From Ruditapes philippinarum (taxonomy: Eukaryota), in assembly GCF_026571515.1 (NCBI RefSeq), contig NW_026866518.1, forward strand, positions 434,001 to 498,000: a stretch of 64,000 nt of DNA, written 5' to 3'. Below, piece by piece: positions 992 to 62,803 of the stretch. The position numbers and the translations under genes were made by a program. The notes below the pieces were generated by a model. That model worked only from the letters and a program-made list of their open reading frames with translations, was not told the origin of the DNA and did not search any database. Within the stretch, counting starts at the first letter, position 1. Each line of letters starts with the position of its first letter.

Positions 992-3900
992 AGATTTCCC
1001 CCTTTCCTCTGTCCTCACAGCTAGTATTACATTCCCACCCATCATTGCAATATTCTTGGCTGTTTCGTACCCAATACCTGAAATTCAATTAAAACCAAAA
1101 AATATCAAAACGCTGTCAAATGGACAGTGAATAAAACAAAGGTATATAATTCACAAAGGGGAATAACTCAGGGAAATCAATGCTAGAGTTATGTAACATG
1201 AGCACAGACATGTGTGATATACATGTATTTTAAACAAATTCGTTTAGCAATTTTGGAGATAAAACTTGCATGCAGAAATATTCTAAATTTATAAGGGGAG
1301 TACCTGTAATTAGGTAAAGATCATTGCTAGAGTTATGTGTCTTGCTTAGTGACTTACATGTATAATCATAACATTATTAATATACAATGTATGAAGATTT
1401 ATTTGAATACATGTATCTTCAGTACTTATTGTCAGCAACTAAACTACCCATGCAACCAGAGCAAACCAAGATTTGCACCATCTGATCATGGTCCGCACTG
1501 TTCTCTCTCCATCAATACCAGTACATATATTGAAATTTTCCCTTAGAAGTAATGAATGGTTATGTCCAGATTGAAAGACAGACAAGTCCATTTAAGATAT
1601 TTAGTGTGACAAGGATTAATGTGATATAAAGTCCTGGTACAAATAAAAAAACAAACTTTTAAGTGTTGACAAGTAGGAAGCCTTACTATTCTCCAAATAG
1701 ACAAACTAAAAAGCTACCAAAACATACTAAAATACATAGAACTAACCAAAAATCAGTTAATTTAAAGTGTAAAACTTAACAACTAAAAGGATTTTTCGCT
1801 AAGAAAACATTTCAGTCTCAGCATATCTTAATTTACTTCAACTTGATTGTGGACGAAATCCATACAACTTGAAGCACAAACTTCCAAGATCTAACTTGTA
1901 CCTGTCTGGTTTGCTAAAATATTGCTGTGATACAAATAGGACTCAAACATAATGATCCCTGGCTTGAGAGGTGGACAAATCTATGACAAGACCAATATAC
2001 CCCCTTATTAATATTCTCAATATGTTACATGATAAATCTCATAACCAAAGCTATTTACAATAACAAAATCATAACCAAAACCATTTACCAGAATAACACA
2101 ATAACAATTAATATGCAGTCAATTAAGAAATGTCAATTAGATACAACCTGGGAAAGATACAAGCACAAGATATATGAATTGCATGACTTATTCTTTTAAT
2201 GTATAATATTATAACACATGTTTACCCTATTTCAGTACTATAGTGGCAATATACTGAAAGGCCTATGATACAGAAAAAATATATATGAGAACTAGAAATG
2301 TGTCATCATGCCACGGATGCCCCCGCATGCAGCCAAAATTTCAGATGTTATAATATTTAGTTCCAAATTTGTTTGCACAAATTATTGTTTTCATTTTAAA
2401 TTCAAAGCCCTTAAAACTTTTCAATGTTAACACAAACCATTTTCATTCAATGTTCAAGGCACTGAAATTATTCAGTCTTAACCTTTTGAAAATAGCATAT
2501 TTCATATTTGTAGCCAAAATAATGGCTACATACATTTCCACAAAAGTATGAGTGCTGAAACTGAAAGTTCAAAATTTTTCCAATATTCAAGAAAGATAAG
2601 TTTGTCCAAAATCATTGAACCGTGACCAAATTCAAACTTAAACTGCCTATTCCTATAATGTATCTATATTTATATTTTCAAAGTGAAAGGGACATAACTC
2701 TGCCAAAAAATCATCGAACCATGACCAAATTCCAACTTGACTTGCCCATTCCTTTGACATATCCATATGTCAAATTTGAGTTGAATATGTAACACTGTTG
2801 GGTAGATAATGAACAGAAACTGTAAATTTCATATTATTTTCAAAGTGAAAAGGGCATAACTCTGCCAAAAATTATTGAACCATGACCAAATTCGAACTTG
2901 ACCTGGGCATTCCAAAAAAATATCCATATGTCAAATTTGAGTTGAATGTGTTGTACTGTAAACAGAAACTGAAAATTTCATATTATTTTCAAAGTAAAAG
3001 GAGCATAACTCTGCCAAAAATCATCGAACCATGACCAAATTCAAACTTGACCTGTATTTTCTCATGACATATCCATATGTCAAATTTGAGTTGAATGTGT
3101 TGTACCGTTGGGGAGATAATGAACGGAAACTGAAAATTTCATATTATTTTCAAAGTAAAAGGGGCATAACTCTGCCAAAAATCATCGAACCATGACCAAA
3201 TTTGAACTTGACCTGTATTTTCTCATGACATATCCATATTTTAAATTTGAGTTGAATGTGTTGTACCGTTGGGGAGATAATGAACGGAAACTGAAAATTT
3301 CATATTATTTTCAAAGTAAAAGGGGCATAACACTGCCAAAAATCGTTGAACCATGACCAAATTCGAACTTGACCTGTATTTTCTAATGACATATCCATAT
3401 GTCAAATTTGAGTTGAATGTGTTGTACCGTTGGGGAGATAATGAACGGAAACTGAAAATTTCATATTATTTTCAAAGTAAAAGGGACATAACTCTGCCAA
3501 AAATCATCGAACCATGACCAAATTCGAACTTGACCTGTATTTTCTAATGACATATCCATATGTCAAATTTGAGTTGAATGTGTTGTACCGTTGGGGAGAT
3601 AATGAACGGAAACTGAAAATTTCATATTATTTTCAAAGTAAAAGGGGCATAACTCTGCCAAAAATCATCGAACCATGACCAAATTCGAACTTGACCTGTA
3701 TTTTCTAATGACATATCCATATGTCAAATTTGAGTTGAATATGTGCAACCGTTACTAAGATAATGCACGGAAACTGATGATGACGGAATGACGGAAGGAC
3801 GGAATGACGGAAGGACGGAACAGGGTAACACTATATGCCCCGGCCATTACATGGCGGGGGCATAAAAAATTAATTCTACTTATATATTAAACAGAAGCCT

Positions 3901-8385: not shown

Positions 8386-8478
8386 GCCCGGCTAGCTCAG
8401 TCGGTAGAGCATCAGACTTTTAAGGCTGATTGAACTTCAGATATCTGAGGGTCGTGGGTTCGAGTCCCCCGTTGGGCG
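8386..8478 (+). tRNA. tRNA-Lys-TTT: tRNA-Lys, anticodon UUU, with a 20-nt intron (8423-8442)
   Basis: GCCCGGCTAGCTCAGTCGGTAGAGCATCAGACTTTTA[intron]ATCTGAGGGTCGTGGGTTCGAGTCCCCCGTTGGGCG folds to a 73-nt cloverleaf. Intact A and B boxes, intron at canonical position 37/38, T6 Pol III terminator at 8483-8488, TATTTAAA about 30 bp upstream. Confidence 0.93.
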
Positions 8479-8961
8479 TACATTTTTTCTTTCAAGAACA
8501 ATTTTTTACACATGTACATAATACAATTTTTATAAGACAAAAAGTTTAGATTACATTATAGAGAAGGTTTTTAATCACATACAACTCGCAATGAAAATGA
8601 AAATACTTATGTAGATCTCTTAATTACTTTTTATATTTTAGCAGTAATATATCATTAATTTTCAAGTAAACCCTTTGAAAGAGCAAAACAATTTTTTATT
8701 TTAAAAAAATCCAGGTTCAAGTTGTAATAATTCTGGAATTATTGGTGCTTTGAACAGTACTGTACAGTAGAGTTATGAATCACATGAAGACCATTATATT
8801 TGAAGCTTATTCCGTAAGAAATAAAGCAGGCATAGAAAGTAGTCCGGCAAGACACCAGTGAAAATACGGAAAATATGTTTCACTGTATTGATTTTTTTTT
8901 TCAGTGAAAATACGGAAAATGAAAATATGCATTTTATTTCATCAATTTTTCTCAATATTTT

Positions 8962-17118: not shown

Positions 17119-19762
17119 ATGAAGATCGTTCTGTTTTGTTTCCTTTTGGCAATTAGTCACCCATTTATTTTTTGTCAGGATGCAGATAAACTCCAATTGA
17201 TATTATCTCGGATTGATACCCTGGAAAATACAGGTATGCTAGATATGCAAAAAATCTGCGGTACATACCATTTATTCAAGTAAGAGAATTCTACATTTTT
17301 CTAAAACTTTCTTGAAATAAACATGAATATAATTCAGCCTAAGCTTATAGGGTTAAATTGATTTGCCGGTTTAACGTATTTAAGATAGTGTGTGTATTCA
17401 TGTGAAAGAACATTTTATTTCTAATACTATATAAAACTTTTTTTTAAATTTTCATTTTCTTTAACTCCATTACATATGTGAAGTGATAGTTCTTTGTAAT
17501 TAAACATTTAAAACATCCACGTTATTGGTAAATTTTGATGAGATGACAATAAGATGTCCACATACCTTTCTATATCTGTTTAGTAAAAGTCGGTCTTTAA
17601 TTCTCCACCGCGTGTTATCAATCGCTTATGTAGACAAACGCATTTTAACCTTACACTTTCACCAAATAACGCAATAAAGAGAACTGAGAGATAGATGGAA
17701 ATGACATTTTGAAGTCAGCTTTTGGCTTACCAATGGTTCTGTGTGGCTTGGTACTGTTTGGTATTGCGTTTAGTCACTGTCGCTCTCCCTTTATGATCTT
17801 TCCGTTCATATTTGATCTACAAAATGTTATTTATTTCAGTCGCATTGCAACACGAACGTATACAGGTTATTCAAAAAAGAGATGAGTCACAACAAAAGCG
17901 CATTGAAGAACTAGAGAACATTGTTAAAGCTCAACAGACATTTATCAACGGTGTTCTAGCTCATGCCAAGGAAGAAGACGTCATAGCTCGTGGCAGTGTT
18001 GAGGGCGTCATAACTGAAGCCGGAGTAAAGAAAAGCCAACATGATACGGCAGGTATCGTTTTGGACACAGACATCAATGGAAATAAAGAAACTCAGCCAT
18101 TGCTTGTTGGTGATCCGGGAAGGAACATATCAGATGTATTTACTAGTATGGACAGCATTGGAGAATATCGACATTGTAAGTGTGGTTTCATCACATCTAG
18201 CGATTCTGAATTTAATCACTTAACTGTGGAATATCATGTTTTACAAATGTCTGGACCGTAATGTGCACAATGGTCTAACTACGAACCAAATATAACCCCT
18301 TGTGCGTTTTTACAAGCACATGAAAGACAAATCATCAGAGATATCCAAAGCTATGATTTTAAATTAAAGCAGCTTGTGGTCCATATCCGTTTTTATTATA
18401 TCTATATGTATATATTTCACGGACTACATCACTGCCGCGCAGTCTTTACTTATTATGGTGGCTGATTTGATACGCTTTTGTGCGTCTAGATGGCGAAAGC
18501 GACAACACGACAAAGCGCCAAACGGCGAGTTGTCGGACTTTCGCCTTGTCGTCCTGTCGCTAGCGACAACACGACAAAGCTCCAAACGGCGCGTTGTCGC
18601 GCTGTCTCTAGCGCGGCACGCCAACCGGTGCGTTGTCGTGCGGCGCGTTGTCGCCCTGTTGCTTGGCTTATAAGCCAACCCTTCAAGTTGAACCGAGCGA
18701 CAATGTGACATCGCAACAACAATCGGCGTGCCGCGCTAGAGACAGGACGACAACGCGCCAACGCGACGCACAAAAGCGTACCAAATCAGCCACAATAACT
18801 TAATTATTAATCAAAGCATTTCGTGTTAGAGACGTACACAGCACTTTCTTTTACTTTTATGTTAAACTGAAACAATATCGGTTTAAAATTGAGTAAAACA
18901 AGAAAGTTGTGGCAGGGGTCTCATATCTGCTTCTCAACTCAAACATCGTTGGCTCGAGCCCAATTTGGGTCATTGTCATGTGTCCTCATATGACACAAGT
19001 GCTAATTATTTCTGGAAGCGAACTCGTAAATGTTTCACTAAGATACAAGCTTTCTTCGCAGTCGACCTTATTATAAATAATAACTTATACTTAAAGTATT
19101 GTGAAGAGAACAAAACATAATTCTACCAAGCTGAAAATTAATATATTCATGTATAACAAATAAAAATTTTAATATTTATTAAATGAGCTATTTTTTCAAC
19201 TCTCTTTTGCTATGAAAAAATTGATACACGAATGGTCATGACATTCGGAAGTTAGCGACTAAAGAGTTTGAAATTGTTTAAAAACAAACAAAATTACTCA
19301 ACACCACGTGTTATTTCGTGCATTTCAGTTAAAAGACGCGGGAAAACAATGGCACGTCAGTTACAAGAAACAGTTGCTTTTCATGCGACAATCGATGTGC
19401 AAACTCACGTCACGCAGCTTACAATTGGGCAGACAATCGTGTTTGATTCAGTCCATCTGAACATTGGAGGAGGGTACCACAGCTCGGGAGGACTATTCAT
19501 TGCACCTACAGCAGGAATCTATATGTTTTCATTATCTGTTATGTTAAATACGCCATCACACTGGATATCTCTGGAATTGCTAAAAAATGGCGCAATATTA
19601 GCTGAAACATATGCTAACGGATATGATCAAGGATCCGTATCGGTTGCTACGCAACTTAAGGTAGGGGATGAAGTGTTTGTAAAGGTACATGGCAGTGACA
19701 GCGGCATGGTTTATGGTGAAAAGTTGACCAGTTTCACGGGTGCCCTTATTATGCCTTATTAA
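17119..19762 (+). CDS. Secreted C1q-domain-containing protein (signal peptide, coiled coil, C-terminal gC1q), ~294 aa, 3 exons
   Basis: Exons 17119-17233 (MKIVLFCFLLAISHPFIFC signal peptide), 17840-18175 (coiled coil QQKRIEELENIVKAQQ) and 19329-19762 (VAFHA...IVFDSVHLNIGGGY...GLFIAPTAGIYMFS...LKVGDEVFV...TSFTGALI). Both introns phase 1; AATAAA near 19797. Confidence 0.93.
18453..18797. mobile_element. GC-rich MITE in intron 2 of the C1q gene
   Basis: About 30-bp TIRs (GTGGCTGATTTG.TACGCTTTTGTGCGTC); interior built of CGACAA/TTGTCG motifs in both orientations. Confidence 0.85.
18905..19090 (+). mobile_element. Degenerate tRNA-head SINE-like fragment
   Basis: Decayed A-box-like (GTGGCAGGGG) and B-box-like (GGCTCGAGCCC) motifs at tRNA spacing, followed by an A/T-rich tail. 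Confidence 0.35.
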
Positions 19763-22644: not shown

Positions 22645-25600
22645 ATGGCGTTCCTTTGTCCAAGTAGGCTTGGTCGGAATAAGCATAAAAGAGGTATGTA
22701 ATATACTTATACTAGTAGTTTTAATATATTTATGTTTCTATGCTTGCATCTACTAACAGAACTATATCATGTATATAGTAAAAAAAGATTAAGAGTAAAT
22801 TGGTTTTATACTGCGTTCTTTCTAAAATACAATTAAATTGTGCAGCTTAATACTCAAAAGACCTGACGAGATGATTGTGTTCTGCAATACTTTTTACCAT
22901 GGAATTATTGAAAGGAATAATATTTTTTATTATTGATAAAAATAAACATTTTATTTTATGAATACAGTATTAAGAAATATATGTCTTATTTACAATATGG
23001 CCTTCAATCAAACAATGTAAATCACATTTTTCAGTAATGAACTATACAATGATGAAACAAAAAACTAGTCTTTGTCTTTTAGGATCATTGATTCCAGCAC
23101 TTTCAAATGTTTTAAATTGAGCACCGCTCAAGCCGGTATAAGGGGCGTGATGGATGTTGCACTTTTTCATTATCCCTCATATACAGTCTCAGTCAAATTG
23201 AGTCTGCAATATACATATTATATTGTCGTGATTTATGCTTCCGAGGTATCACCCTTTCTCCATATTTTATGGTAACAAAACGCAGTAACGCAGAAAAATG
23301 TTATTTGCGACCTGGTTTAAAATATGTACACGGTATTACATAATACATACTATCTCCTTTCGAAACTGACTTTCATTTTAAGAAAGATGATTATTATATT
23401 CACGACGTTAAAAAATACATATTACATAATATTTAATGTAATACAAAGTTAGGCGTAAATAGTAGTACAATTTATTCTATCTACGAATGCCTTTTCATAA
23501 TAATTTCATATACATGTACATTGAACGGATTTTATCAGTGAATAAGTGATAAAATGATAGATAAGCAAGCGAAGTCTCTGGATGTGTCCTACTGGCTAGT
23601 CCATCGGTTAGATGGAATATAACAAGTTTCATCTGCTCATATATATTTAACGTGTTCCTTTACGTCACCGAACTTTCAATGATATCAAACTGCGTTGACT
23701 ATATTAATTATGTTATAAGCCTTTCATAAATGTCGCAATTGTTTTAGGTTACCAAAGCATGATGAGGAGATTGACAGAGGGTGATAGATTAGACACTTTA
23801 ACGCTTGAAGATCTTGTAAAGTTAAGCTGGACAACTCCAGAATCTCGTCGAATTATTATGCAGAATTTTAATTCTTGTGAGTCACAAGAAATTAATGTCA
23901 AACAAGGTCAAAAGGTCAACTACATTTACAGAGAAGGGGATTGGGCATACATTGTTACAGACGACAAAAAGGAAGGATTCGTCCCTTTTATATTTCTGGC
24001 AAAGATTGGGGTGCCTCCTAACCCAACAAGAAATGCTATAGACACAGGAACTTATACAAAAAGATGTAGTGAGTTGAATCCTCGTAACTTTTCTGTTGAA
24101 AGTGAAGAAACTGATCATAGCGGAAGCGACCTAGCAGACGACACATTCACTTCCCCGGGATGGTCAACTGATTCGGGATCAGTTACTACAGTACAAGATT
24201 ATCCGTCAGTAAATTTTCTAAAGACAGAACCGTTCGAAAAAGTTCCAATGTTTTATGAAGTGTTTTTGGATGAAAGGACAAATATATTGCATAAAAATCC
24301 GTTACCGTCACCAGGAAGAAGTGACGACAATGAAATCCCTGATAATAACAACAACCAACGTCTTCTTCAATTCAAAGTGCTGTTTAACTTTGCAGGTAAA
24401 TTTCCTAATAAGAATTTGATGATGATCTTTGAGCTTGTTATAAGAAATAACCAGATAGGTATTTAACACTTATTAATTTTTTGATCATCTTTAAACAATT
24501 TTTAAAAAGGAATCACTGGGGATGCATAAAGAAATTAAAAAGAAAATGGAGAAAATGATTTTACGCTTCAGTATTTACATGTATAAAAGTAAGTAGAAAT
24601 GAAAAGATTCGTTGCGTTTGAGGAAAGCTGGTGAAAAACTCAAAAACGTTAACCATATAATATTGAAGACGTAATAATAAACCCCTACAGTAAAGTGGAT
24701 GGCTAAATATATATTTTACCAATGAATATTTTCTGGCAGCTTTATCAGGTTAATCTGAATAACATTTATATGCCATCACAAAGCGACGAAAATAAAGAAG
24801 AATACATTTATGATGTATATATGATTGACAAAATCTTTTATGTTTTGTCTAAATATTGATGTCAATATCAAAGTTTCATGACAGATGGAAATTTGCTGCA
24901 TCATATTTTATGTACGATACACATGTTCAAACGTAAATGCGTATCACAAAAGAAATATTGTTTAAATTTCTCAATTTCTATTATAGGTTTAGACTTGTAC
25001 GATGTGTCCGTAAAACCTGGTGAAATAGTGGATCTATTAGATGACAGTGATCCTGGTTGGTTTTTGGTACGAAGATCAGATGGTTATGAAGGCTACGTGC
25101 CAAGTAACTATATCACCCAACTAACTGAACAACACACACGAGACTTTGAAAATAGTGATAACGAAGCGTTAGAAAGCAGACGAGTCAATGGTCATGAGAA
25201 AAGTCCGGTTAATAAAACTAAAGCAGATCAAAATGAAATTCCGAAAAGTTGGAAAATCACAAATGACCTAAAGGGGAAAAGTCCCATCACAACAGCTAAC
25301 GACATAACTGATGAAGCAAATAAACAAAAGAAACAAAGACCGAAGAAACCACCTAGAAAAAAGAAAGCAAGTTTGGATGGTTTGTCTCCAAGGCTGGACG
25401 AATCGGTAGATTCAATAGACACTTTTCTATCAGAGAGCAGTGCAGAATATCTAGACAATGCTGCTAAATCACCCTTAGACGAATTATCTCCAAGATCAGA
25501 CGATTACAGCGATTCATCCATTTTTGAAAGCAGTTTTAACGGTATCTATGGTTACAGGCAATGTGCTCGTGGCTTGTCAGACATGGAGTTATCACCAAGA

Positions 25601-27583
25601 TCTTTGAATGTGCAATCCTACGACGGTAGTACGTCTGATGAAAAGTCTGTAAGGAAAGGGAATGAAAGACTAGAAGGCCAAACGTCTTTAGAAGAAAGAG
25701 GAGGTAACATTAAAAATGCAAGTAGAAATAGGAGAGAAACTCAAGAATCCAACTGCTATGGAAGAAACTTTTCTTGTGAAACGAGTGACTCTTTTGAAAG
25801 TAGATCTAGTTATGGACGAAGACAAAAACGCCCAGTGTCGATGCCGGCCTTTAGTTCATATCAGGAATGTAAGAAAGATTATTATGATGAATATTTCTAT
25901 GACGATGCTGATACAAAATTTGCTAACAAATCAAAACACGACGTTATCAATGTAGCTGAAATTCTACGGATGCGAAATGCTAATAAAAACAAGAAAACGG
26001 AGCATTCACATCTGAAACAGAGAAACATCGAAAAGAATTCTGAAAAATATCATCAGATAAGAAAATCATCGTCTGCAGCGGAGTCAAAAGATCGTAATAG
26101 ACAGTGTAGCAATAGAGCAAAAAACTCTCAAAACCAACCGAAATTAAAACAGTTCTTATTGGATTTGCCTTTAAATAAGATGGAAAAGCAAAATATAAAA
26201 ACGAATCGCCAATGTAGTGAGAAAAATGATGCTATAAATGTAAACTACAAGGTGGAAACGAGTGAACATAATCATTCTTCAAAGAATTTGCAGAAACATA
26301 ACAATGCAAGAAGCATGAATGAGTTCTTTGGAAAAGATGTGAAGTACAAAAGTCCTGAAACGACTGATTTTCATCAGAAACTTGTTAAAGGAAAACCAAA
26401 GGACAACCAGTCAAGAAAATATAATTCATCATCTGATTTACGACAAGTAGAAACAAAACATTCAGTAGCGAATACAGATTACGGATTAGATAATGAATTA
26501 GGCAATGTGTCTATAAAGAATAATAAAGAGAATAAAAAAACTCATATACGACCATACAATTCTTCAACTGACTTGCGAGAGATTGGTGGAAAGCCTGATT
26601 GGTCATTTGGGTATCCTAGGAGAACTAAACAAAGTATAGGCAGACAAGAAAATAGAGGACCATCTGGTGCATTAACAAATGATACCAGAAGAGGCACAAA
26701 AAGCAGTGAAAACAGCAATGGAGCAGACGATGGATTGGACCAAGGTATTGCATTAAAAAACAACAGAGATCTTTACAACTTAAGACAGAATCCTGAATCA
26801 AGAACGGTGGGTGGTATAGTTAAAACACAGCAAGACGATGACAATGAAGTATTTTATAATGAAAATGAAGATGTATGTTTTGATGACGGGGCAATGATGG
26901 CATTATTAAATCAAACAGATAACCTACTTAACAAGACAGACAGACTCCTGCATCGTGATAAAAACGATAGAACTCACAAACAAGAGGTTAACTGTTTGGC
27001 TAATCAAAATAATCCAAAGATAGACAAGCACCACAAAGAAATACATAGAAATGATAATAATGTAATAAAAGACACTAAAAGTTGCTCCACATTACACCAT
27101 TCAGAAGCTGAAACAGATGCTGTTAATAAATGTAATCTTTTTCTTAATAATAGTACAATTGGTATACATGGTATGACATACTCTATCACCGAAACTAATA
27201 GTGAAAATGTTTCCACGGACAATATAGATGGGAAGATAAATTCTGAAATCCAGCGTTGTTCTTTACAAAGTTGTCAAAGTGTGGACAGTGACTCTAGAAA
27301 AGAGAAAAGTAATGTTATGAAAGATAATTCAAGCAAAGTGGTGTCTGCTGAAATTAAATCCATGGATCTGCATGACATCAGGGGTATAACAGAGTTTGTG
27401 TGTCAGTGTGACTGTGATAATGACAATGACAATATGTTGCCAATAAAATATGGGGAAATTATCCATATTGGTCTTGATGGTCAAGGTGATGGAGACAAGT
27501 ACTGGGCCTATAGCCCTACACTTAAAAAGTATGGATTTGTACATAAACAAAATGTTAAAATACCTATGGTTACCATTATATAA
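22645..27583 (+). CDS. Dlish: Three-SH3-domain adaptor, Dlish/Vamana-like (Fat-Dachs-Hippo pathway), ~1097 aa, 3 exons
   Basis: Exons 22645-22693 (MAFLCPSRLGRNKHKR), 23748-24395 and 24987-27583, both introns phase 1. The N-terminus MAFLCPxR and SH3-1 (EINVKQGQKVNYIYREGDWAYIV...EGFVPF) match my recollection of Drosophila Dlish. SH3-2 is split by intron 2 (VLFNFAG|LDLYDVSVKPGE...WFLVRRSDGYEGYVPSNY); divergent SH3-3 at the C-terminus. Confidence 0.82.
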
Positions 27584-32110: not shown

Positions 32111-35100
32111 TCAAAATATTTTTCTGTCCCGTATTTTCTGTTCTTTCATCTCTTTTATTGTCCTTTCCAGTTTATTAAGTTTCCTTTGTGCTTCGTCTTC
32201 TTGCTTAACAATATCCTCTTTACGTCGCTTAAATTCTCGCAATATTTTTTCTTTATCTAAACCATACTGCTTAATTTCTTTATCAATTTCTTCTAACACT
32301 TTCTGTTTCATTTCATAAAACTTCTCTTTTTCCTGTTCAATATCAGCTTGAACTTTTTCAATTTTCTCCCTCTTTTCTTTCCTCATTTCCTGTCTCACAC
32401 CTTGCTTTATACGGCTCCTTCTACAGGGCTTCCAATATCTATATGGGTCTTCAGGAGTCCATGTTAACTTTAGCTCCTTCAGAAGCCACAGAAATCGGTC
32501 ATAATCAAGTGCGCGCAATTTTTTCAGTGTCTTCTTTCTTTTAGCAATTCTCTCAATTAGATGCGCTTTATGTTTTTTATTCTGCAAATAACACAAGATA
32601 CATGTATTCGTAAAATGTTTTCAATTCAAAATGAAAGGACAACAGATTTGAAAAGCAAGAGGGCAATGAAGACCCTTATTTCTTTCTTTTTCATTTGAAT
32701 GAGTTTTACGTCTCATCAACAATGTATAGGTAATATCATTATGGCGACTTTCCAGCTTTCCTGGTGGAGAATAACCTCAGTTGCCCTTCCGTGAATTATC
32801 TAAAGAGTAGAACCACAGGCTTTCCGTAACAAAGCAAAGTCTCTGTAGGGATGCTCCACATAATGACCGTTATATTACTCACTTAAATATTAAGACTCTA
32901 AATACGAAGGAACATTGCTAAGTGTTACTTTGCAAGTATACTGTTATATTTTGATACATTTAACATGCTTAATCAGAGATCTGGTATAAACCCCCTATAA
33001 ATGAATAAAGCTTTGTATTTGTTTTTATTTACTTTGGTTAAGGACCAAATATGGACATTATTTCATCAGTACCCAAGGTTCAGCACAAATTGTTGTCAAT
33101 GTGTCAGTCATTTTTAGCCCATGTTTCGCATTAGTGGTTGACAATATGCCAGTCATTTAGCCCATGTTTAGCATCAGTGGCTGACATTATGCCAGTCATT
33201 TAGCACATGTTTAGCATCAGTGGTTGCAATAAGTCAGTCATTTAGCCCACGTTTAGCATCAGTGGCTGACATTATGCCAGTCATTTAGCCCATGTTTAGC
33301 ATCAGTGGCTGACATTTTCCAGTCATTTAGCCCATGTTTAGCATCAGTGGCTGACATTATGCCAGTCATTTAGCCCATGTTTAGCATCAGTGGTTGACAT
33401 TATGCCAGTCATTTAGCCCATGTTTAGCATCAGTGGCTGACATTATGCCAGTCATTTAGCCCATGTTTAGCATCAGTGGTTGACATTATGCCAGTCATTT
33501 TAGCCCATGTTTAGCATCAGTGGCTGACATTATGCCAGTCATTTAGCACATGTTTAGCATCAGTGGTTGCAATAAGTCAGTCATTTAGCCCACGTTTAGC
33601 ATCAGTGGCTGACATTATGCCAGTCATTTAGCCAACGTTTAGCATCAGTGGTTGACAATATGCCGGTCATTTAGCCCATGTTTAGCATCAGTGGCTGACA
33701 TTATGCCAGTCATTTAGCCCATGTTTAGCATCAGTGGCTGACATTATGCCAGTCATTTAGCCCATGTTAAGCATCAGTTTTTGTTTGTTTGTTTGTGTCA
33801 TTTTACGCCTTTTTCCAACAGTATTTCAGTCATATAGGCGGGTAGTTTCCTAACCATCGTTCCTGGAGAGTTACACCAGTACTTGACTACCTTCCTCCGC
33901 GCTAAACTACCAAAGCATCTCCCGGGGATCGAACCCACGCCAGAGAGGTAACTGGATTAGAAGTCATCAACTCTAACCACTCGACCACGGAGGCGGTGTA
34001 TTTAGCATCAGTGGTTGACATTATGCCAGTCATTTAGCCCATGTTTAGCATCAGTGTTGACATTATGCCAGTCATTTAGCCCATGTTTAGCATCAGTGGT
34101 TGACATTATGCCAGTCATGTTAGCCCATGTTTAGCATCAGTGGCTGACATTATGCCAGTCATTTAGCCCATGTTTAGCATCAGTGGTTGACATTATGCCA
34201 GTCATTTAGCCCATGTTTAGCATCAGTGGTTGACATTATGCCAGTCATTTAGCCCATGTTTTAGCATCAGTGTTGACATTATGCCAGTCATTTAGCCCAT
34301 GTTTAGCATCAGTGGTTGACATTATGCCAGTCATTTAGCCCATGTTTAGCATCAGTGGCTGACATTATGCCAGTCATTTAGCCCATGTTAAGCATCAGTG
34401 GTGACAATATGCCAGTCATTTAGCCCATGTTTAGCATCAGTGGTTAAAATTATGTCAGTCATTTAGCCCATGTTTAGCATCAGTGGTGACAAATATGTCA
34501 GTCATTTAGCCATGTTTAGCATCAGTGGTGACAATATGTCAGTCATCTAGCCCATGTTTAGCATCAGTGGTGACAATATGTCAGTCATTTAGCCCATGTT
34601 TAGCATCAGTGGTTGACAATATGTCAGTCATTTAGCCCATGTTTAGCATCAGTGGTTGACAATATGTCAGTCATTTAGCACATGTTTAGCATCAGTGGTT
34701 GACAATATGTCAGTCATTTAGCCCATGTTTAGCATCAGTGGTTAAAATTATGTCAGTCATTTAGCCCATGTTTAGCATCAGTGGTGACAATATGTCAGTC
34801 ATTTAGCCCATGTTTAGCATCAGTGGTGACAATATGTCAGTCATCTAGCCCATGTTTAGCATCAGTGGTGACAATATGTCAGTCATTTAGCCCATGTTTA
34901 GCATCAGTGGTTGACAATATGTCAGTCATTTAGCCCATGTTTAGCATCAGTGGTTGACAATATAACAGTTATTTACCCCATGTTTAGCAGAAGTGGTTGA
35001 CAATATGTCAGTCATTTACTCCACGTTTAGCATCAGTGGTTGACAATATGTCAGTAATTAGGCCACATTTAGCATTAGTGGTTGACAGTACATGTATTTC

Positions 35101-38100
35101 AGTTATTAAGCCCATGTTTAGCATCAGGGGTCAACAACATTTCAGTAATTTACCCCAAGTTTAGCACCAACCATTGACAAGAATGGGTGACCATGTGACA
35201 TATGTTTACATAACATTTGGTCACACATATTTTTTACTACTTTTTTGTTATATCTTTAATATTTGAATGAAACTAGAACAGTGTCCAAAAGACACGGATG
35301 CCCCCACTGACAACATATATATGGTATATAGTGAAAAAATCAACAAAGGGCCATAATTCTGTTAAATTTGGTCGCAGCAAAAATTCCTTCCTTTACTTCC
35401 ATCTACACATTAAGGTTGTTCATCCCTGGAAGTTTAAGCAAAATCTGCCATCCGGTTTAAGAGGAGATGCGTTCATATATATTTCGGGACAGACGTACGG
35501 ACGGATAGACAAGTGCAACGCTATATGCTCCCCACTTTGTGGGGGCATAAAAATATACCATGTTCAAGGTACATAATGTAAATATTTGCCAATTGCAATG
35601 GTATATATTTTTCCAATGTAGCTTTTGTACTTTTCCAGACATGTTATCAGAAATTTGTGACACTTATTTTCATCAAAATATTGATGCATAGAAAAATTTC
35701 TAATTTACAATATCTTAATTATTCCCCCTGGTTAAGTGAAAATTGTTGATAATATTTCAGTAATTACACACGAAAGTTTCCCAAACTGTGTCTGTGAATT
35801 CTTTAGCAATTCAAACTATATTTCCCAAATCTTGCTTCTGGAGGTAAATGATTTGGAACAGCGCTTGACAATAACAAGTTTAATTGGATAATATTTTTGT
35901 TCACAAATATTAATTCTTCAACAGTGTCTGCACACTGCTTGCATAATAATGAACTAATAATAGAATGTATAACAATACAAAATAAAATATAAATGTCCTA
36001 CCCTTCTGTCACCAACAATATATGGAATCATATTACGAATCTTTATGGTCAAAAAACAAACTGAAAATAGAAAACAATTGTTAAAATAATTAATAACATT
36101 AATCTATATTGAACTTTTTTCTTATTGTTTGTAACCTAAACATTTTCTAATGTACTAAAAAAGCAAGAATCATTCTAGTATTAAACACATTCTCTGTAAA
36201 ATACAAAAATGCTGACCATGATCATCAATTATTCTTTTGGTTGGGTTTTTAAATTGCACCAACACTGTAAATGGCGGCTTACCTGCTTTATTGGTGGAGG
36301 AAGACCTCAGGTGCATTACATCTGGCTCAAATGAACACCTGGACAGCTCCCTCACATGAAAGAAATCAAAATCCCTGGGGGGATTCAAACCTACAGCAGT
36401 GTGTGGCAAATGGTTTTAAGTCAATGACACCATGTCCATTAAGGCACCGTTTACTAAAAGTTCTTTAAAGGGACCAATCTTCATTATTCAAAGTTTTCTG
36501 CTTTGTTTAATTGTAACTTTGTTTTATGGTCAGCAATTCCTATGATGTATGTTGTTTTATATAGCATCAGTATTTTCCAGTCTCACCTGTCTCAACATGC
36601 TAACAATTTCTAGACTTATTTTTCTTTTACCTTTCTACGAAAGATCCGACATGCACTCAGGGTTTTCATTAGGAAGCAGTGACAGACACAAGTGCATTTT
36701 GAGCCACCTCAAAACTTAGTAAAAACTCTTTGTTGAATATGATGAACCCAAAAATGACCACTTCTAATTTACACACAAAAAAAACAACAACCCTGGCACT
36801 TATTTCTCTAACAGGGCAGTATTCAGAGATACACAGATAGATAGACTATATAATCTCATATCTACTTTATGATTTTTGCAACTGCTTCTTATTGGAAATT
36901 GGACAAAAGGATTAAGCAAAACAAGAATTCATATTTCAGGAATTTACCGCCACTTTTTTCAATGGTTCAGACTAAATCATAATGGAGAGAGTGGACTCTT
37001 TCTTGCATATCAGACAGGATTAGCTTCTTTTTACATAAGTTGCCCATTTTAAATGACGTCATTCCCTCGCCCCATTTATGAATGAATTGCATTCTTAGGA
37101 TGATGTCATTGTACAGTTCTGAATGAAGTTATAAATTCATATGCTACTATAAGAAAAAAAACTTGGATGAAAATATTAGTTTGTTATTTCTATACAAAAT
37201 ATCATTAATTTGTTGTATGCAAGAAAAAGTATCAACATCGGCTGTGGTCACAGGCAGGAACATCTAGCTCTCATGAAGCTGTTTCGCAGAAACTCAGCTG
37301 AGCCTTGTTAAGGCCGTAAACAGTTACCCTCAAGATAGATAGATATTCAAATCTGTGCCGATATCCGGTGTAAGATTCTTATAATATGTACATAATTACA
37401 AGAAGTATGAAAATAACAGTTACTTATGTGAAAGTTAAGAATTCGAATTAATCACAATTAATCCAATTATCCTTATAATATGTACAGAAGTCAATGGGAC
37501 AGAACCAAATATACTGATATTTGGAGGGACGGTTCCTAGTAATCTGAAGGAGGTCTTACTTTCTTTTTCTAGGCATGGTCCTGGACCAATCAGCTTTGTG
37601 ACCTTGTCCAGCAGAACAGCATTTCTATGCTCTTGTTTCTCTCGCTGAAATAATAAAACAATAACAACAAATATGTAACAACTTGATTTAGGTAGGCTTA
37701 TAAATTTGATCTCACAATCTTGCCTGTGACCTCAGCATAAAAGTAATCATTAGCATAATTATATAGTCAACATTTAAACAACTTGCCATCTGATTATGAT
37801 CTGCACTATTCAAAATTAATATACTGGTTGGGGACCACCAAAACCGGACAACCACCAAACCCAGACAACCCCGAAAATGCTTAATTTAGTATTTTCTTTG
37901 TTCAGTGGTTGTCAGTCACTTTTTCATCAGCAATAAATGCATGTTTCTTCTAAAATTAAGTAAATAAACTTATTTCAACTCCGTAAATGGTAATATTTTA
38001 ATGTCTATTTCAAGAATGTTGACATTAAAATTTGGGGGGGGTCAAGAAAGCATGCCTGACCTCATATACCAGCTTTAATCATTTGCAGAATAAACAATAG

Positions 38101-41100: not shown

Positions 41101-44100
41101 GAAATGAGACTATTATAATAGTGGATCCTTAATTTTCCATTGTTATTTACTTCAAATGGAATAATGTACGTCTTTCACAAATCAAAAAGGCATGGGCCTT
41201 TTGACAATACTAAATTTAAATTTGGATGAAAACAATACATCATAAATATTAAACAAGAGGGCCATGATGGCCCCGAGTCGCTCACCAGAAACAACTGCTT
41301 TTCAGTGTTGGAATGTCAATATATTCTCGCATAGAATATGTTTAAAAAATAATTTGAAGAAATGCCATGACCTGGGACATTTAAGCTTTAGCTTAGACAG
41401 GGCTAATCAAATTAATATGAGCAAACTTGATAAAAGACTACCTAAGACTGCTACAAAGTTTGGTGATCATCTATCAATTATTTCAGTAGGAAATGATGTT
41501 TTAAGGTTTTTTCTATTTTTAGCTTTAGTGGCCCCTAAAAGGGGCTAATCAAATTCATATAAGCAAAATTGATAAAAGAGTACCCAAGAATGCTACAGAC
41601 AGTTTGGTGATCATCCATCAATTGGTTCTGAAGTAGATGTTTAAAGGTTTTTCTATTTTTAGCTTTAGCTGCCCCTAAAAGGGACCAATCAAATAAATGT
41701 GAGCAAACTTGATAAAACACTACCCAAGAATGCTACAGACAAAGTTTGGTGATCATCCATCAATTAGTTCTGTAGGTGAAGATGTTTAAAGGTTTTTCTA
41801 TTTTTAGCCCTAGAGACCCTTAAAAGGGGCCAATTAAATTCATATGAGCAAACTTGATAAAAGACTACACAAGAATGCTACAGACAAAGTTTGGTGATCA
41901 TCCATCAATTAGTTCTGTAGAAATAGATGTTTAAAGGTTTTTCTATTTTTAGCTTAAGTGGCCCCTAAAAGGGGCCAATCAAATTCATATGAGCAAACTT
42001 GATAAAAGACTACCCAAGAATGCTACAGACAAAGTTTGGTGATCATCCATCAATTAGTTCTGTAGGAGAAGGTGTTCAAAGTTTTTTTCTATTTTTAGCC
42101 TTAGAGACCCCTAAAAGGGGCCAATCAAAATAATATTAGCAAACTGAATAAAAGACTACCAAAGAATGCTACAGACAAAGTTTGGTGATCATCCATCAAT
42201 TAGTTCTCTAGAAATAGACATTTAAAAGTATTTTTAGCTTTAGCGGCCCCTACCAGGGGACAATCAAGTTAATATGAGCAAACTTGATAAAACACTACCG
42301 AAGAATGCTACAGACAAAGTTTGGTGATCATCCATCAATTAGTTCTGTAGGAGAAGATGTTTAAAGGTTTTTCTATTTTTAGCCCTAGAGACCCCTAAAA
42401 GGGGCCAATCAAATTCATATGAGCAAACTTGATAAAACACTACCCAAGAATGCTACAGACAAAGTTTGGTGATCATCCATCAATTAGTTCTGTAGAAATA
42501 GATGTTTAAAGGTTTTTCTATTTTTAGCTTTAGTGGCCCCTAAAAGGGGCCAATCAAATTCATATGAGCAAACTTGATAAAAGACTACCCAAGAATGCTA
42601 CAGACAAAGTTTGGTGATCATCCATCCATTAGTTCTGTAGAAGAAGATGTTTAAAGGTTTTTCTATTTTTAGCCCTACTGACCCCTAAAAGGGGCCAATC
42701 AAATTAATATGAGCAAACTTGATAAAAGACTACCCAAGAATGCTACAGACAAAGTTTGGTGATCATCCATCAATTAGTTCTGTAGAAGAAGATGTTTAAA
42801 GGTTTTTCTATTTTTAGCTCTGCTGACCCCTAAAAGGGGCCAATTGGAATGACATGAGCAAATTCAAGTGTGACTGTCACAAGGATGCTACAGACCAAAT
42901 TTGAAGTAAATCTGCCCAGTAGTTTCAGAGAAGAAGACGATTGTTGACGCATGACGACGGACACCGGAGCATCCCCCTTTGATACTAATAGCTCACCCTG
43001 AGCCTTCGGCTCTGGTGAGCTAATAAATGGAAATTTAATCAGAATAACAGAACTATACTTTATCAAAGTTAAAGTTTACATGATAATAATGCTATAGCAC
43101 ATAAATATTTGGAAATATTAAATTAAAAATGTTATAAAATTTGAGAAATTCTTTTTCAAGATGAGCAATATTATCACAGATGTTATGATTTGATGAATGA
43201 GAGAACATGCAAAAATTTGTCAAAATTACTTATAACCACTCAAAAATTGTTAAATAAATACGAAAATTTATTTGTATTAACTCAAATAATATGTCATATA
43301 TGACCACCAGCTGCTATATTTTAACTCAAGACTACATACATGTACATTAGTCATGAAAATATTGCATCTGGTGTTCCCTCCATTTAATATATTTCAATCT
43401 TACATGCAAAACAAACAAACATCCCTTATGCTTTATTCCAGCTCTAGTGACTTGTAACATTTTTGCTTATAACTTAACACCCACAAACAATTCATTACGA
43501 ATAACTGCTTAAGTTTGGTTTTTAGTTGGTGTGAATTGAAGGAACTCCACTGAGGTTTCTTGACATGACAGGACTGAAAATAATTTTTCTAGATGATGTA
43601 GGTCAAGAACAATAATGTGTGAAAAATTTCAGATCATCTGACCACTCAGTTTTTCCAGAACAATTATTCTAAATGTGGGAAATGACTTGAACTTGAAAAG
43701 CGTTGCAACCCATTTCACTCAAACCAGGCTAGGAATAGCATAAAATTCGATCTTCAACTTGTCTCCGAGTATATTGCTTAATTATCTTTTTGTTCTAAGT
43801 GACCCATCTGATCTATATCATAATAGTTTCAAATATTTTTGACAGGTTATATGGCCATATAAATATATTGCAACCGTTTATATATGGTCATACAACCTGT
43901 CAGGAATATTTATAACAAATTTATCATACAGCAAACTTCCTTTTTTGAGAAAAAGTGAAATTGACAGCAGTATATCTAATGATGGTAAAATTATTTTGTT
44001 TTCAAACGCTTACGATCACGTTACTGTTGAAGTTACTCAATGCCACATGACCATGGAGCTAAATATAGATGGAGAAGTAACTGACCTCACACAGCTGTTC

Positions 44101-57977: not shown

Positions 57978-60900
57978 GGGTAATGATCCCAGTCCGGGGT
58001 AAGATCCTAAACACTGGTAAGATCCCAGTCAGGGGTAAGATCCTTAACACTGGTAAGATCCCAGTCAGGGGCAAGATCCCAAACACTGTTAAGATCCCAG
58101 TCAGGGGTAAGATCCTTAACACTAGTAAGATCCCAGTCAGGGGCAAGATCCTAAACACTGGTAAGATCCCAGTCAGGGGTAAGATCCTGAACACTGGTAA
58201 GATCTCAGTCAGGGGTAAGATCCTTAACACTGTTAAGATCCCAGTCAGGGGTAAGATCCTTAACACTGGTAAGATCCCAGTCAGGGGCAAGATCCTAAAC
58301 ACTGGTAAGATCCCAGTCAGGGGTAAGATCCTTAACACTGTTAAGATCTCAGTCAGGGGTAAGATCCAAAACCTCTGGTCACTGGTAAGATCCCAGTCAG
58401 TGGTAAGATCCCAGTCAGGAGTAAGATCCTAAACACTGTTAAGATCCCAGTCAGGGGTAAGATCCAAAACTCTAGTCAGTGGTAAGATCCCAGTCAGTGG
58501 TAAGATCCCAGTCAGGGGTAAGATCCTAAACACTGTTAAGATCCCAGTCAGGGGTAAGATCCTAAACACTGTTAAGATCCCAGTCAGGGGTAAGATCCTA
58601 AACACTGGTAAGATCCCAGTCAGGGGTAAGATCCTTAACACTGTTAAGACCTAGTCAGGGGTAAGATCCAAAACTCTGGTCACTGGTAAGATCCCAGTCA
58701 GGGGTAAGATCCTAAACACTGTTAAGATCCCAGTCAGGGGTAAGATCCTTAACACTGTTAAGATCCCAGTCAGGGGTAAGATCCTAAACACTGGTAAGAT
58801 CCCAGTCAGGGGTAAGATCCTTAACACTGTTAAGATCTCAGTCAGGGGTAAGATCCTTAACACTGGTAAGATCTCAGTCAGGGGTAAGATCCTTAACACT
58901 GTTAAGATCCCAGTCAGGGGTAAGATCCTAAACACTGTTAAGATCCCAGTCAGGGGTAAGATCCTTAACACTGGTAAGATCTCAGTCATGGGTAAGATCC
59001 TTAACACTGTTAAGATCCCAGTCAGGGGTAAGATCCAAAACTCTGGTCACTGGTAAGATCCCAGTCACTGGTAAGATCCTAAACACTGGTAAGATCTCAG
59101 TCAGGGGTAAGATCCTTATAACAGTGTTTATATCCTAAACACTGTTAAGATCCCAGTCAGGGGTAAGATCCTTAACACTGTTAAGATCCCAGTCAGGGGT
59201 AAGATCCTAAACACTGTTAAGATCAAAGTCAGGGGTAAGATCATTAACACTAGTAAGATCCCAGTCAGGGGTAAGATCCTAAACACTGGTAAGATCTCAG
59301 TCAGGGGTAAGATCCTTAACACTGTTAAGATCCCAGTCAGGGGTAAGATCCTAAACAATGTTAAGATCTCAGTCAGGGGTAAGATCCTTAACACTGTTAA
59401 GATCTCAGTCAGGGGTAAGATCCTAAACAATGTTAAGATCCCAGTCAGGGGTAAGATCCTTAACACTAGTAAGATCCCAGTCAGGGGTAAGATCCTAAAC
59501 ACTGTTAAGATCTCAGTCAGGGGTAAGATCCTTAACACTGTTAAGATCCCAGTCAGGGGCAAGATCCTAAACACTGTTAAGATCTCAGTCAGGGGTAAGA
59601 TCCTGAACACTGGTAAGATCTCAGTCAGGGGTAAGATCCTTAACACTGTTAAGATCCCAGTCAGGGGTAAGATCCTTAACACTAGTAAGATCCCAGTCAG
59701 GGGCAAGATCCTAAACCACTGGTAAGATCCCAGTCAGGGGTAAGATCCTTAACACTGTTAAGATCTCAGTCAGGGGTAAGATCCAAAACTCTGGTCACTG
59801 GTAAGATCCCAGTCAGTGGTAAGACCCCAGTCAGGGGTAAGATCCTAAATACTGTTAAGATCCTAGTCAGGGGTAAGATCCAAAACTCTGGTCAGTGGTA
59901 AGATCCCAGTCAGGGGTAAGATCCTAAACACTGTTAAGATCCCAGTCAGGGGTAAGATCCTAAACACTGGTAAGATCCCAGTCAGGGGTAAGATCCTTAA
60001 CACTGTTAAGATCCCAGTCAGGGGTAAGATCCAAAACTCTGGTAACTGGTAAGATCCCAGTCAGGGGTAAGATCCTAAACACTGTTAAGATCCCAGTCAG
60101 GGTAAGATCCTTAACACTGTTAAGATCCCAGTCAGGGTAAGATCCTAAACACTGGTAAGATCCCAATCAGGGGTAAGATCCTTAACACTGTTAAGATCTC
60201 AGTCAGGGGTAAAATCCTTAACACTGTTAAGATCCCAGTCAGGGGTAAGATCCTAAACACTGTTAAGATCCCAGTCAGGGGTAAGATCCTTAACACTGGT
60301 AAGATCTCAGTCAGGGGTAAGATCCTTAACACTGTTAAGATCCCAGTCAGGGGTAAGATACAAAACTCTGGTCACTGGTAAGATCCTAAACACTGGTAAG
60401 ATCTCAGTCAGGGGTAAGATCCTTATAACAGTGTTTATATCCTAAACACTGTTAAGATCCCAGTCAGGGGTAAGATCCTTAACACTGTTAAGATCCCAGT
60501 CAGGGTAAGATCCTAAACACTGGTAAGATCCCAATCAGGGGTAAGATCGTTAACACTGTTAAGATCTCAGTCAGGGGTACAATCCTTAACACTGTTAAGA
60601 TCCCAGTCAGGGGTAAGATCCTAAACACTGTTAAGATCCCAGTCAGGGGTAAGATCCTAACACTAGTAAGATCCCAGTCAGGGGTAAGATCCTTAACACT
60701 GTTAAGATCCCAGTCAGGGGTAAGATCCTTAACATTAGTAAGATCCCAGTCAGGGGTAAGACCCTAAACACTGTTAAGATCTCAGTCAGGGGTAAGATCC
60801 TTAACACTTAAGATCCCAGTCAGGGGCAAGATCCTAAACACTGTTAAGATCTCAGTCAGGGGTAAGATCCTTAACACTGTTAAGATCCCAGTCAGGGGTA

Positions 60901-62803
60901 AGATCCTTAACACTGATAAGATCCCAGTCAGGGGCAAGATCCTAAACACTGGTAAGATCCCAGTCAGGGGTAAGATCCTTAACACTGTTAAGATCTCAGT
61001 CAGGGGTAAGATCCAAAACTCTGGTCACTGGTAAGATCCCAGTCAGTGGTAAGATCCCAGTCAGGGGTAAGATCCTAAATACTGTTAAGATCCCAGTCAG
61101 GGGTAAGATCCAAAACTCTGGTCAGTGGTAAGATCCCAGTCAGGGGTAAGATCCTAAACACTGTTAAGATCCCAGTCAGGGGTAAGATCCTAAACACTGT
61201 TAAGATCCCAGTCAGGGTAAGATCCTAAACACTGGTAAGATCCCAGTCAGGGGTAAGATCCTTTAACACTGTTAAGATCCCAGTCAGGGGTAAGATCCAA
61301 AACTCTGGTCACTGGTAAGATCCCAGTCAGCGGGTAAGATCCTAAACACTGTTAAGATCCCAGTCAGGGGTAAGATCCTTAACACTGTTAAAATCCCAGT
61401 CAGGGTAAGATCCTAAACACTGGTAAGATCCCAATCAGGGGTAAGATCCTTAACACTGTTAAGATCTCAGTCAGGGGTAAAATCCTTAACACTGTTAAGA
61501 TCCCAGTCAGGGGTAAGATCCTAAACACTGTTAAGATCCCAGTCAGGGGTAAGATCCTTAACAATGGTAAGATCTCAGTCAGGGGTAAGATCCTTAACAC
61601 TGTTAAGATCCCAGTCAGGGGTAAGATCCAAAACTCTGGTCACTGGTAAGATCCCAGTCACTGGTAAGATCCTAAACACTGGTAAGATCTCAGTCAGGGG
61701 TAAGATCCTTATAACAGTGTTTATATCCTAAACACTGTTAAGATCCCAGTCAGGGGTAAGATCCTTAACACTGTTAAGATCCCAGTCAGGGGTAAGATCC
61801 TAAACACTGTTAAGATCAAAGTCAGGGGTAAGATCCTTAACACTAGTAAGATCCCAGTCAGGGTAAGATCCTAAACACTGGTAAGATCTCAGTCAGGGGT
61901 AAGATCCTTAACACTGTTAAGATCCCAGTCAGGGGTAAGATCCTAAACAATGTTAAGATCTCAGTCAGGGGTAAGATCCTTAACACTGTTAAGATCTCAG
62001 TCAGGGGTAAGATCCTAAACAATGTTAAGATCCCAGTCAGGGGTAAGATCCTTAACACTAGTAAGATCCCAGTCAGGGGTAAGATCCTAAACACTGTTAA
62101 GATCCCAGTCAGGGGTAAGATCCTTAACACTGTTAAAATCCCAGTCAGGGGTAAGATCCTAAACACTGTTAAGATCTCAGTCAGGGGTAAGATCCTTAAC
62201 ACTAGTTAGATCCCAGTCAGGGGTAAGATCCTTAACACTGTTAAGGTAAGATCTTAACACTAGTAAGATCCCAGTCAGGGGTAAGATCCTTAACACTGTT
62301 AAGATCCCAGTCAGGGGCAAGATCCCAAACAATGTTAAGATCCCAGTCAGGGGTAAGATACTAACACTAGTAAGATCCCAGTCAGGGGTAAGATCCTAAA
62401 CACTGTTAAGATCCCAGTCAGGGGTAAGATCCTAACACTAGTTAGATCCCATTCAGGGGTAAAATCCTTAACACTGTTAAGATCCCAGTCAGGGGTAAGA
62501 TCCTAAACACTGTTAAGATCCCAGTCAGGGGTAAAATCCTTAACACTAGTAAGATCCCAGTCAGGGGTAAGATCCTTAACACTGTTAAGATCCCAGTCAG
62601 GGGTAAGATCCTAAACACTGGTAAGATCCCAGTCAGGGGCAAGATCCCAAACAATGTGAAGATCCCAGTCAGGGGTAAGATCCTAAACACTGGTTAGATC
62701 CCAGTTAGGGGGTAAGATCCCAAACACTGGTAAGATTGCAAACAATGGTAAGATCCCGGTCAGAGGTAAGATCCCAAACACTGGTAGGATCACAGTCAGG
62801 GGT
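57978..62803. repeat. Satellite array of ~4.8 kb, 36-bp unit made of two related 18-mers
   Basis: GTAAGATCCCAGTCAGGG + GTAAGATCCT(A/T)AACACTG, roughly 130 copies. Confidence 0.98.

Follow-up and report, generated by a model that had tools for sequence, protein, structure and literature searches.

Introns in animal tRNA genes are prevalent in tRNA-Tyr(GUA), tRNA-Ile(UAU), tRNA-Leu(CAA) and tRNA-Arg(UCU) and, as judged from GtRNAdb, essentially absent otherwise (10.1101/2025.06.17.660180). The steps by which TSEN and RtcB remove such introns and join the exons are set out in PMC10275265 (section 11), PMC10485636 and PMC6614914. In budding yeast, removal of the intron from tRNA-Lys(UUU) causes a growth defect on respiratory media and leaves the tRNA level unchanged (PMC6582322). 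The lysine tRNAs of mammals and insects differ in their bodies as well as in their anticodons, as tRNA-Lys(CUU) has a C7:G66 acceptor stem and a GUGGG T stem and tRNA-Lys(UUU) has A7 and CAGGG (PMC9023262).

We analyzed a 64-kb stretch of clam DNA, referred to here as the window, in which a preliminary description had placed an intron-containing tRNA-Lys(UUU) with a tRNA-Lys(CUU)-type body at 8386-8488, proposing that it is a lineage-specific hybrid isodecoder that requires splicing. We compared this gene with its relatives in the same genome and in metagenome assemblies, and with the retroelements whose primer-binding sites (PBSs) are copies of lysine tRNA ends.

Results

Organization of the intron-bearing gene

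All parts of the gene lie on the forward strand. The 5' exon (8386..8422), assigned from the sequence and its alignment to RF00005, corresponds to nt 1-37 and contains the acceptor stem's 5' strand, the D arm and also the anticodon stem's 5' strand, with the Pol III A box at approximately 8393-8404; C32 is at 8417, the TTT anticodon at 8419-8421 and A37 at 8422. The 20-nt intron (8423..8442), defined by sequence and fold, lies between A37 and A38, so that its earlier placement exactly after nt 37 of a tRNA-Lys(UUU) is borne out by the sequence. Pairing with C32 is possible for its third-last base, G(-3) at 8440, as had also been proposed, and pairing with U33 for A(-4). The 3' exon (8443..8478, nt 38-73) provides the 3' strand of the anticodon stem, the variable loop, the T arm and the discriminator base G73, and includes the B box at 8458-8466. 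The T6 RNA polymerase III terminator is present as described, at 8483..8488.

RF00005 matches 8386-8478 with 52.4 bits (E 2.2e-08, gathering threshold 29) and a 21-nt insert in the anticodon loop, and this is the only match to an Rfam family in the window. ARAGORN detects the gene and misfolds it, reporting either no isotype or, with its intron option, a false Leu. When 8423-8442 is taken out, the remaining 73 nt are in exactly the register of intronless paralogues from the same genome, with three position differences (49, 64 and 65). The cloverleaf, both promoter boxes, the terminator and the UUU anticodon with A37 are all present; the one exception is the T-stem mismatch noted in the preliminary description, U50 (8455) opposite C64 (8469). 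For the T stem, PMC9023262 found no conserved non-standard pairs.

The rest of the window contains, also on the forward strand, exons of two proteins, one with a C1q domain (19256-19762) and one that combines an SH3 domain with an extended low-complexity stretch (23708-27583). These genes, like the Helenus-type elements described below, are in keeping with a bivalve. More than 100 tandem copies of a 36-bp unit, with long open frames on both strands, fill 57979-62736, and further satellites lie at 2673-3777 (161 bp), 33092-35166 (43 bp) and 41400-42844 (145 bp).

Intron-bearing and intronless lysine tRNA genes in one genome

The clam's own genome (1.41 Gb in 15,874 contigs) was searched with BLAST, for which the best 40 of 115 candidate matches were scored, and with exact patterns, which matched exon 1 at its end in 62 places and exon 2, at its C64-bearing end, in 53. 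The loci collected include at least 56 copies, spread over 20 contigs, in which the two exons flank an intron of 18-21 nt, a collection that favors conserved exons because it was made by exact exon patterns or best 40 BLAST matches, and whose counts, like all copy counts here, may be inflated by uncollapsed haplotypes. Not included among the 56 are five places that were located later or break off: three in which the exon 1 pattern is followed by a decayed 3' part, one truncated copy, and degenerate copies. Exons identical to those of the window copy are found in 37 of the 56, on 17 contigs, combined with nine intron alleles of 18-21 nt. By their unrelated flanks these 37 fall into 11 groups, two of which are clusters or 650-bp tandem arrays, and the window copy is alone in its group; its intron allele is found in two of the 37 and the commonest allele in 27. 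G(-3) is retained in every one of the 37 and in 54 of the 56 overall, C64 is present in 55 of the 56, and a run of at least four T follows all 37 intact copies. The exons of the other 19 are damaged.

The preliminary description had reasoned that conserved exons with variable introns would support function, and that a single non-conserved copy with no spliced reads would point to a pseudogene. The first pattern is the one observed, in the 37 identical-exon copies with their nine alleles and likewise in the metagenome copies described below, and the gene is not a single copy. The intron-bearing gene is repeated in tandem every ~650 bp at C14685:23449-31730 and C14267:403308-407209, where terminators are shorter (T4) and the end copies have decayed. 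In the copies at L079 (C10635:43865), L074 (C1731:173367) and L180 (C4146:2694), internal deletions have taken away some of exon 1 or some of the intron; they probably arose by slippage between repeated stem-like words.

For intronless Lys-UUU genes the patterns matched at 11 places; one match is degenerate, and the other ten lie on two contigs with blocks in common that are 92-93% identical. Their 5' exon is identical to that of the intron-bearing family, their T stem is fully paired, and they score 70 bits on RF00005. Lys-CUU patterns matched 16 times, with no intron-bearing gene among those read. Intron-bearing genes are thus the majority Lys-UUU form in this assembly, with the caveat of haplotype duplication and of exact patterns.

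These paralogues also bear on the proposed hybrid. The Lys-CUU-type body was correctly recognized relative to the mammals and insects tabulated in PMC9023262. However, the intronless UUU genes of this genome share the acceptor stem and differ from the spliced product at the three positions only, and because they are nearly identical to it the CUU-like body is the lineage's own Lys-UUU body. The acceptor stem is in fact common to all three lysine tRNA types of the genome, and seven positions separate the spliced product from local Lys-CUU. G49:C65 is common to the intron-bearing family and local Lys-CUU and is not found in the intronless UUU genes.

The genome also encodes tRNA intron endonuclease domains (PF01974), with three exons, at the two loci C10464 and C5767, scoring above the cut-off. 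Two sequence patterns for the genome's own intron-bearing Tyr-GUA genes gave no matches.

Conservation of the intron in metagenome assemblies

Metagenome assemblies were scanned with the 3' exon made degenerate at 49, 64 and 65, which allowed intronless genes to match as well. The scan returned 19 loci in four assemblies, and all 19 carry an intron-type insert before A38, complete in 18 (19-21 nt) and running to the contig edge in one. Exon 1 is identical to that of the window in 15 of the 18 complete copies and the anticodon loop is invariant across them. The introns have 13-16 identities with the 20 nt of the window intron and are, by their sequence, homologous to it. No flank matches were found between the metagenome loci and the own-genome loci collected, and prokaryote genome contigs yielded no match. 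The presence of the same exons and intron in four metagenome assemblies leaves little of the original suggestion that the gene is lineage-specific.

The metagenome copies add eight alleles, for a total of 17 distinct alleles over five assemblies. G(-3) and C(-5) are invariant in all 17, G(-3) being retained even where its hairpin partner is U. With the alignment offset chosen to maximize pairing, the second and last bases of the intron can form a standard pair in 17/17 alleles, and by this comparison the intron hairpin is kept in most alleles, some pairs having changed to wobbles and the pair that involves base -2 having once been swapped on both sides. In the commonest own-genome allele neither U33:A(-4) nor the intron hairpin is intact. 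Two of the metagenome assemblies have C at position 64; the other two have A, which pairs with U50, with the same intron.

Folding of the intron and its precursor

The intron alone can fold into a 4-bp hairpin (8426-8429 with 8437-8440, -3.1 kcal/mol), so the internal hairpin of the preliminary description is present and weak. Its stability is modest, being equaled in 14 of 200 shuffles, and since no allele clearly beats its shuffles (best 32/500) the support for the hairpin lies in kept or swapped pairs and not in its energy. G(-3) also closes this hairpin, so that two pairings compete for it.

Precursors were folded in ViennaRNA with the acceptor, D and T stems enforced. For the unspliced RNA of the nine own-genome alleles the probability of the native anticodon stem is at most 0.09, and the fold preferred in most cases is branched, with the intron halves paired to both strands of the anticodon stem. 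For the window allele, the native fold lies 6.7 kcal/mol above the preferred one (17 of 200 shuffled introns are as extreme); the gap of the majority allele is ordinary (88 of 200). As a control, the native stem of the spliced tRNA is also missed (0.02), and precursors with shuffled introns give 0.07-0.16, which weakens the result as evidence against the native fold. We rejected the branched, class II-like fold as a functional form, as it is not conserved and the model fails this control.

The resemblance of the intron arms to the anticodon-stem strands suggests that the intron may have originated as a local duplication of the anticodon arm. The window intron also resembles a vertebrate Arg-UCU intron, and vertebrate Arg-UCU genes are mostly intron-bearing. 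Arg-UCU as the intron donor is nevertheless rejected, because the Arg-UCU genes examined here (30 of 33 places; L120-L179 on C24, C9003, C15811 and others) are intronless in 29/30 loci, the remaining one breaking off. Many of these Arg-UCU genes are in arrays of ~162 bp.

Retroelement primer-binding sites and probable 3' maturation of the tRNA

Retroelements primed by a tRNA carry a copy of its 3' end. The tRNA-Lys 3' end followed by CCA occurs genome-wide 497 times as a 16-mer and 458 times as an 18-mer, with none for the controls, and because these sites start 1-3 nt after LTR ends they are PBSs. Among the first 100 listed sites, sorted by eye, 50 have the T60/C64/C65 signature of the intron family, 31 that of Lys-CUU (C60/A64/C65) and six that of the intronless UUU genes (T60/A64/T65), with 13 mixed. 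Positions 60 and 64 covary in the listed sites, as C64 occurs with T60 54 times and with C60 twice.

A single TRIM family, whose LTR is tRNA-like, accounts for 28 of the 34 sites first examined. Its units of ~250 bp consist of an LTR plus an internal region and have A- and B-box-like sequences in the LTR, a tRNA-Lys PBS, a purine tract and no ORF; ARAGORN reads one such LTR as a Thr-like tRNA. The family fits Helenus, by comparison with the elements described in PMC10886601. biv-TRIM, which PMC6934838 describes as without a canonical PBS, was rejected as the identity of these elements. One PBS-bearing element is a full Gypsy, with a gag zinc knuckle, RT, RNase H, integrase and two LTRs 95.8% alike, and the family signature with CCA is present in several LTR families.

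We then compared 76 TRIM units from 71 loci, picked from the listed places and so not a random sample, of which 32 have an intron-family PBS, 29 a CUU PBS, five an intronless UUU PBS and 10 another type. PBS type differs in 34 of 53 pairs of units at least 97% identical, compared with 1173 of 2033 pairs overall, and changes between copies 99% alike and between neighbors in tandem arrays. On the TRIM tree the three types need 22 changes, compared with 25.3 when labels are shuffled (82 of 1000 as low). Because PBS type switches among near-identical copies and the changes on the tree are near the shuffled number, the TRIM PBS is evidently re-copied from the tRNA primer and not inherited. Examples of Helenus-type units with perfect 18-nt PBSs that switch type are L110 (C762), L205 (C2419) and L206 (C3802); such PBSs form a DNA record of germ-line tRNA use.

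CCA follows the gene in none of the 56 intron-bearing copies and is therefore not encoded. We infer that RNA of the intron-bearing family is transcribed, trimmed and CCA-added, and that it is abundant in the germ line; the PBS evidence concerns the family and not the window copy in particular.

Read-through copies and the 3' splice site

Five elements carry CCA-bearing copies that extend past A58, and none of them enters the intron. Three, from one Gypsy family, hold exactly nt 38-76; the copied part stops at position 38 (or 37), and each of the three has another junction and resumes elsewhere in the element. Only position 58 sets two of them apart from the tRNA, with a change to G in one and to T in the other, as is expected to mark reverse transcription through m1A58. 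The read-through copies are few, their junctions carry 2-5 nt of microhomology, and two of the three Gypsy copies are in one element. In the Gypsy elements L088 (C7246, 681-9010) and L184 (C10551) the PBS is extended to the 39-nt 3' exon + CCA and then jumps into gag or pol, and one element has a second insert inside pol. A TRIM read-through (L053/L089, C8751:32558-32614) passes from the intron-family 3' exon to a Lys-CUU 5' half across the splice site, without the intron, and would reflect either a template switch, possible anywhere in positions 35-41, or ligation of unlike halves. One of the five ends near position 45.

Retroviral plus-strand synthesis is reported to halt at m1A58 with a minor product at ms2t6A37 (PMC13191261; stops also in PMC8599865), and an unmodified tRNA is copied through to its end (PMC13191261, PMC8599865). 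In tRNA-Lys(UUU), ms2t6A37 is a lasting block to reverse transcriptase, giving short cDNAs from 39 nt (PMC8062790). An end at 38 would thus fit a spliced tRNA with modified A37, and equally a cleaved 3' exon that was not ligated. Because both readings require it, a cut at the canonical 3' splice site is indicated, and splicing of the intron is likely. A search of sequencing runs with 22 sampled words returned 24 rows, of which 20 contained a part of the words and none half of them or more (best share 0.27), and none of these runs counts as evidence here.

Discussion

Several lines of evidence suggest that the locus is, with high probability, one copy of a majority tRNA-Lys(UUU) family whose intron, at the canonical position, would be removed by TSEN and RtcB to yield a working AAA-decoding tRNA. 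The proposal that this is an intron-bearing gene that needs splicing is supported by the fixed exons and variable introns of the family, by the PF01974 genes and by the retroelement copies, which point to 3' maturation and to a cut at the 3' splice site. In the pathway that we envisage, Pol III would be directed by the A and B boxes and transcribe the gene as far as the T6 run, the ends would be trimmed and CCA then added. TSEN would locate its sites by a ruler from the tRNA body together with the C32:G(-3) pair, for which the intron's own hairpin would have to open, and RtcB would ligate the exons. With m1A58 and (ms2)t6A37 in place, the product would serve in AAA decoding and would prime Gypsy and Helenus-type elements. 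By analogy with Drosophila, the intron might plausibly be set free as a small circle. Since there are also intact intronless Lys-UUU genes, the decoding of AAA could do without the intron-bearing family.

It is improbable, in our estimation, that the RNA is end-matured and then left mostly unjoined, as a branched unspliced fold or as halves, to serve as a retroelement primer or source of fragments while the intronless genes decode AAA. Although the branched fold, with an 8-nt loop and a long hairpin resembling a variable arm, is the minimum-energy structure for most alleles, and the intron halves resemble both strands of the anticodon stem, this fold has not been kept: the length of its linker varies, two intact-exon alleles bulge its first stem, the energy gap of the majority allele is that of shuffled introns and the model fails the spliced tRNA. 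The U50:C64 mismatch, fixed in this family and absent from the fully paired T stem of the intronless genes, might be taken to mark such an RNA, yet two assemblies pair U50:A64 with the same intron. Read-throughs that end at 38 would suit a free 3' exon; on the other hand, the anticodon loop does not vary among species and G(-3) persists even opposite a hairpin partner U, which argues against this reading.

We regard as very unlikely a recent private chimera, in which a Lys-CUU body acquired a Lys-UUU anticodon arm and the intron was gained in one species only. The G49:C65 pair shared with local Lys-CUU, and acceptor and T stems that are of the CUU type in the mammal and insect table of PMC9023262, speak for such an event, but the seven differences from local Lys-CUU exceed the three from local intronless Lys-UUU, and the same exons with a homologous intron are present in four metagenome assemblies with unrelated flanks. 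Least probable of all is a dead or SINE-like tRNA-Lys-derived repeat with a chance insertion, a reading that the ~650 bp arrays of C14685 and C14267 and the damaged exons of 19/56 copies might invite and that is largely refuted by the contrast between unchanging exons and diverging introns and flanks, both within and between species, by copies bounded exactly at nt 1 and nt 73 and followed by a terminator, by an insertion exactly at 37/38 and by CCA-bearing copies of a matured RNA.

For the spliced Lys-UUU family, the metagenome counterparts suggest that the intron is most likely an old gain common to an invertebrate clade (molluscs or wider) and not a private event, and that it is likely to be an overlooked, clade-wide fifth animal tRNA intron. 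A broader scheme is speculative and, taken as a whole, rather unlikely: in molluscs or a wider clade a fifth conserved tRNA intron would make most AAA decoding TSEN-dependent, competition between the hairpin and the anticodon-intron pair would act as a switch in splicing or modification (at U34 or A37) relative to the intronless paralogues, and the freed intron would persist as a 20-nt circle. Mammals offer an analogy for such a switch in a brain-specific intronless Arg-UCU gene that exists beside intron-bearing ones.

The intron-bearing tRNAs of animals are treated as a short fixed list of Tyr, Ile, Leu and Arg, and a conserved Lys-UUU intron, if true, would clearly exemplify the gain of an intron within animals. 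One genome contains paralogues with and without the intron that are distinguished by three exon positions, so that their expression, modification and splicing can be compared and the purpose of the intron becomes directly testable. Because gene finders misread these genes, as when ARAGORN assigns no isotype, Lys-UUU counts in such genomes may be wrong. Retroelement primer sites may also allow germ-line tRNA maturation and isodecoder use to be read from DNA alone.

Comparison with known systems

Among the lysine tRNAs of mammals and insects, the acceptor stem and the 5' strand of the T stem at this locus are like those of Lys-CUU and the anticodon stem is like that of Lys-UUU; unlike in any of those tRNAs as tabulated, UUU is combined here with a C7:G66 stem, and U50:C64 is fixed both here and in two metagenome assemblies (PMC9023262). 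The Aplysia tRNA-Lys-CTT end, with U at 64 in Figure S2C of PMC10886601, hints at a loose T-stem position in other mollusc lysine tRNAs.

The retroelements resemble the Helenus TRIMs and Lys-primed Gypsy elements of bivalves in their tRNA-like LTR, tRNA-Lys PBS and purine tract (PMC10886601). In this genome 18 nt are copied perfectly in the PBS, which switches among three isodecoders, whereas the bivalve Lys PBSs in Figure S2 of PMC10886601 match over only ~10-14 nt, and none of those in that figure carries the intron-family signature.

Similarities to the tricRNAs of Drosophila and human include a possible C-G proximal pair, the main cis element reported for them (PMC6614914), and intron ends that are able to pair in all 17 alleles under the best-offset rule. 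Unlike tricRNAs (PMC6614914), the intron is only 18-21 nt long.

The tRNA-Lys(UUU) of Saccharomyces cerevisiae has the same anticodon and an intron (PMC6582322). All genes of that yeast family are intron-bearing (PMC6582322), whereas the clam genome has intronless paralogues. Because recent tRNA intron gains have been reported in yeasts (PMC4090602), independent gain of the yeast and animal Lys-UUU introns would, by analogy, be likelier.

Our literature search found no report of an animal Lys-UUU intron, and database annotations of mollusc genomes may already show one. In its 37/38 position, its short length and the ability of C32 to pair with its third-last base, the intron is like the canonical TSEN-spliced introns of animals (PMC10275265, PMC6614914, PMC10485636), and as in those the intron is variable and the exons are fixed. 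A mixture of intron-bearing and intronless genes in one family is likewise found for human Arg-UCU and Leu-CAA. It differs from the canonical animal introns in that the isoacceptor is Lys-UUU and in that G(-3) also takes part in the intron's own hairpin. The machinery and the type of intron are standard; the novelty lies in the isoacceptor, in the clade and in the presence of intronless paralogues beside the intron-bearing genes.
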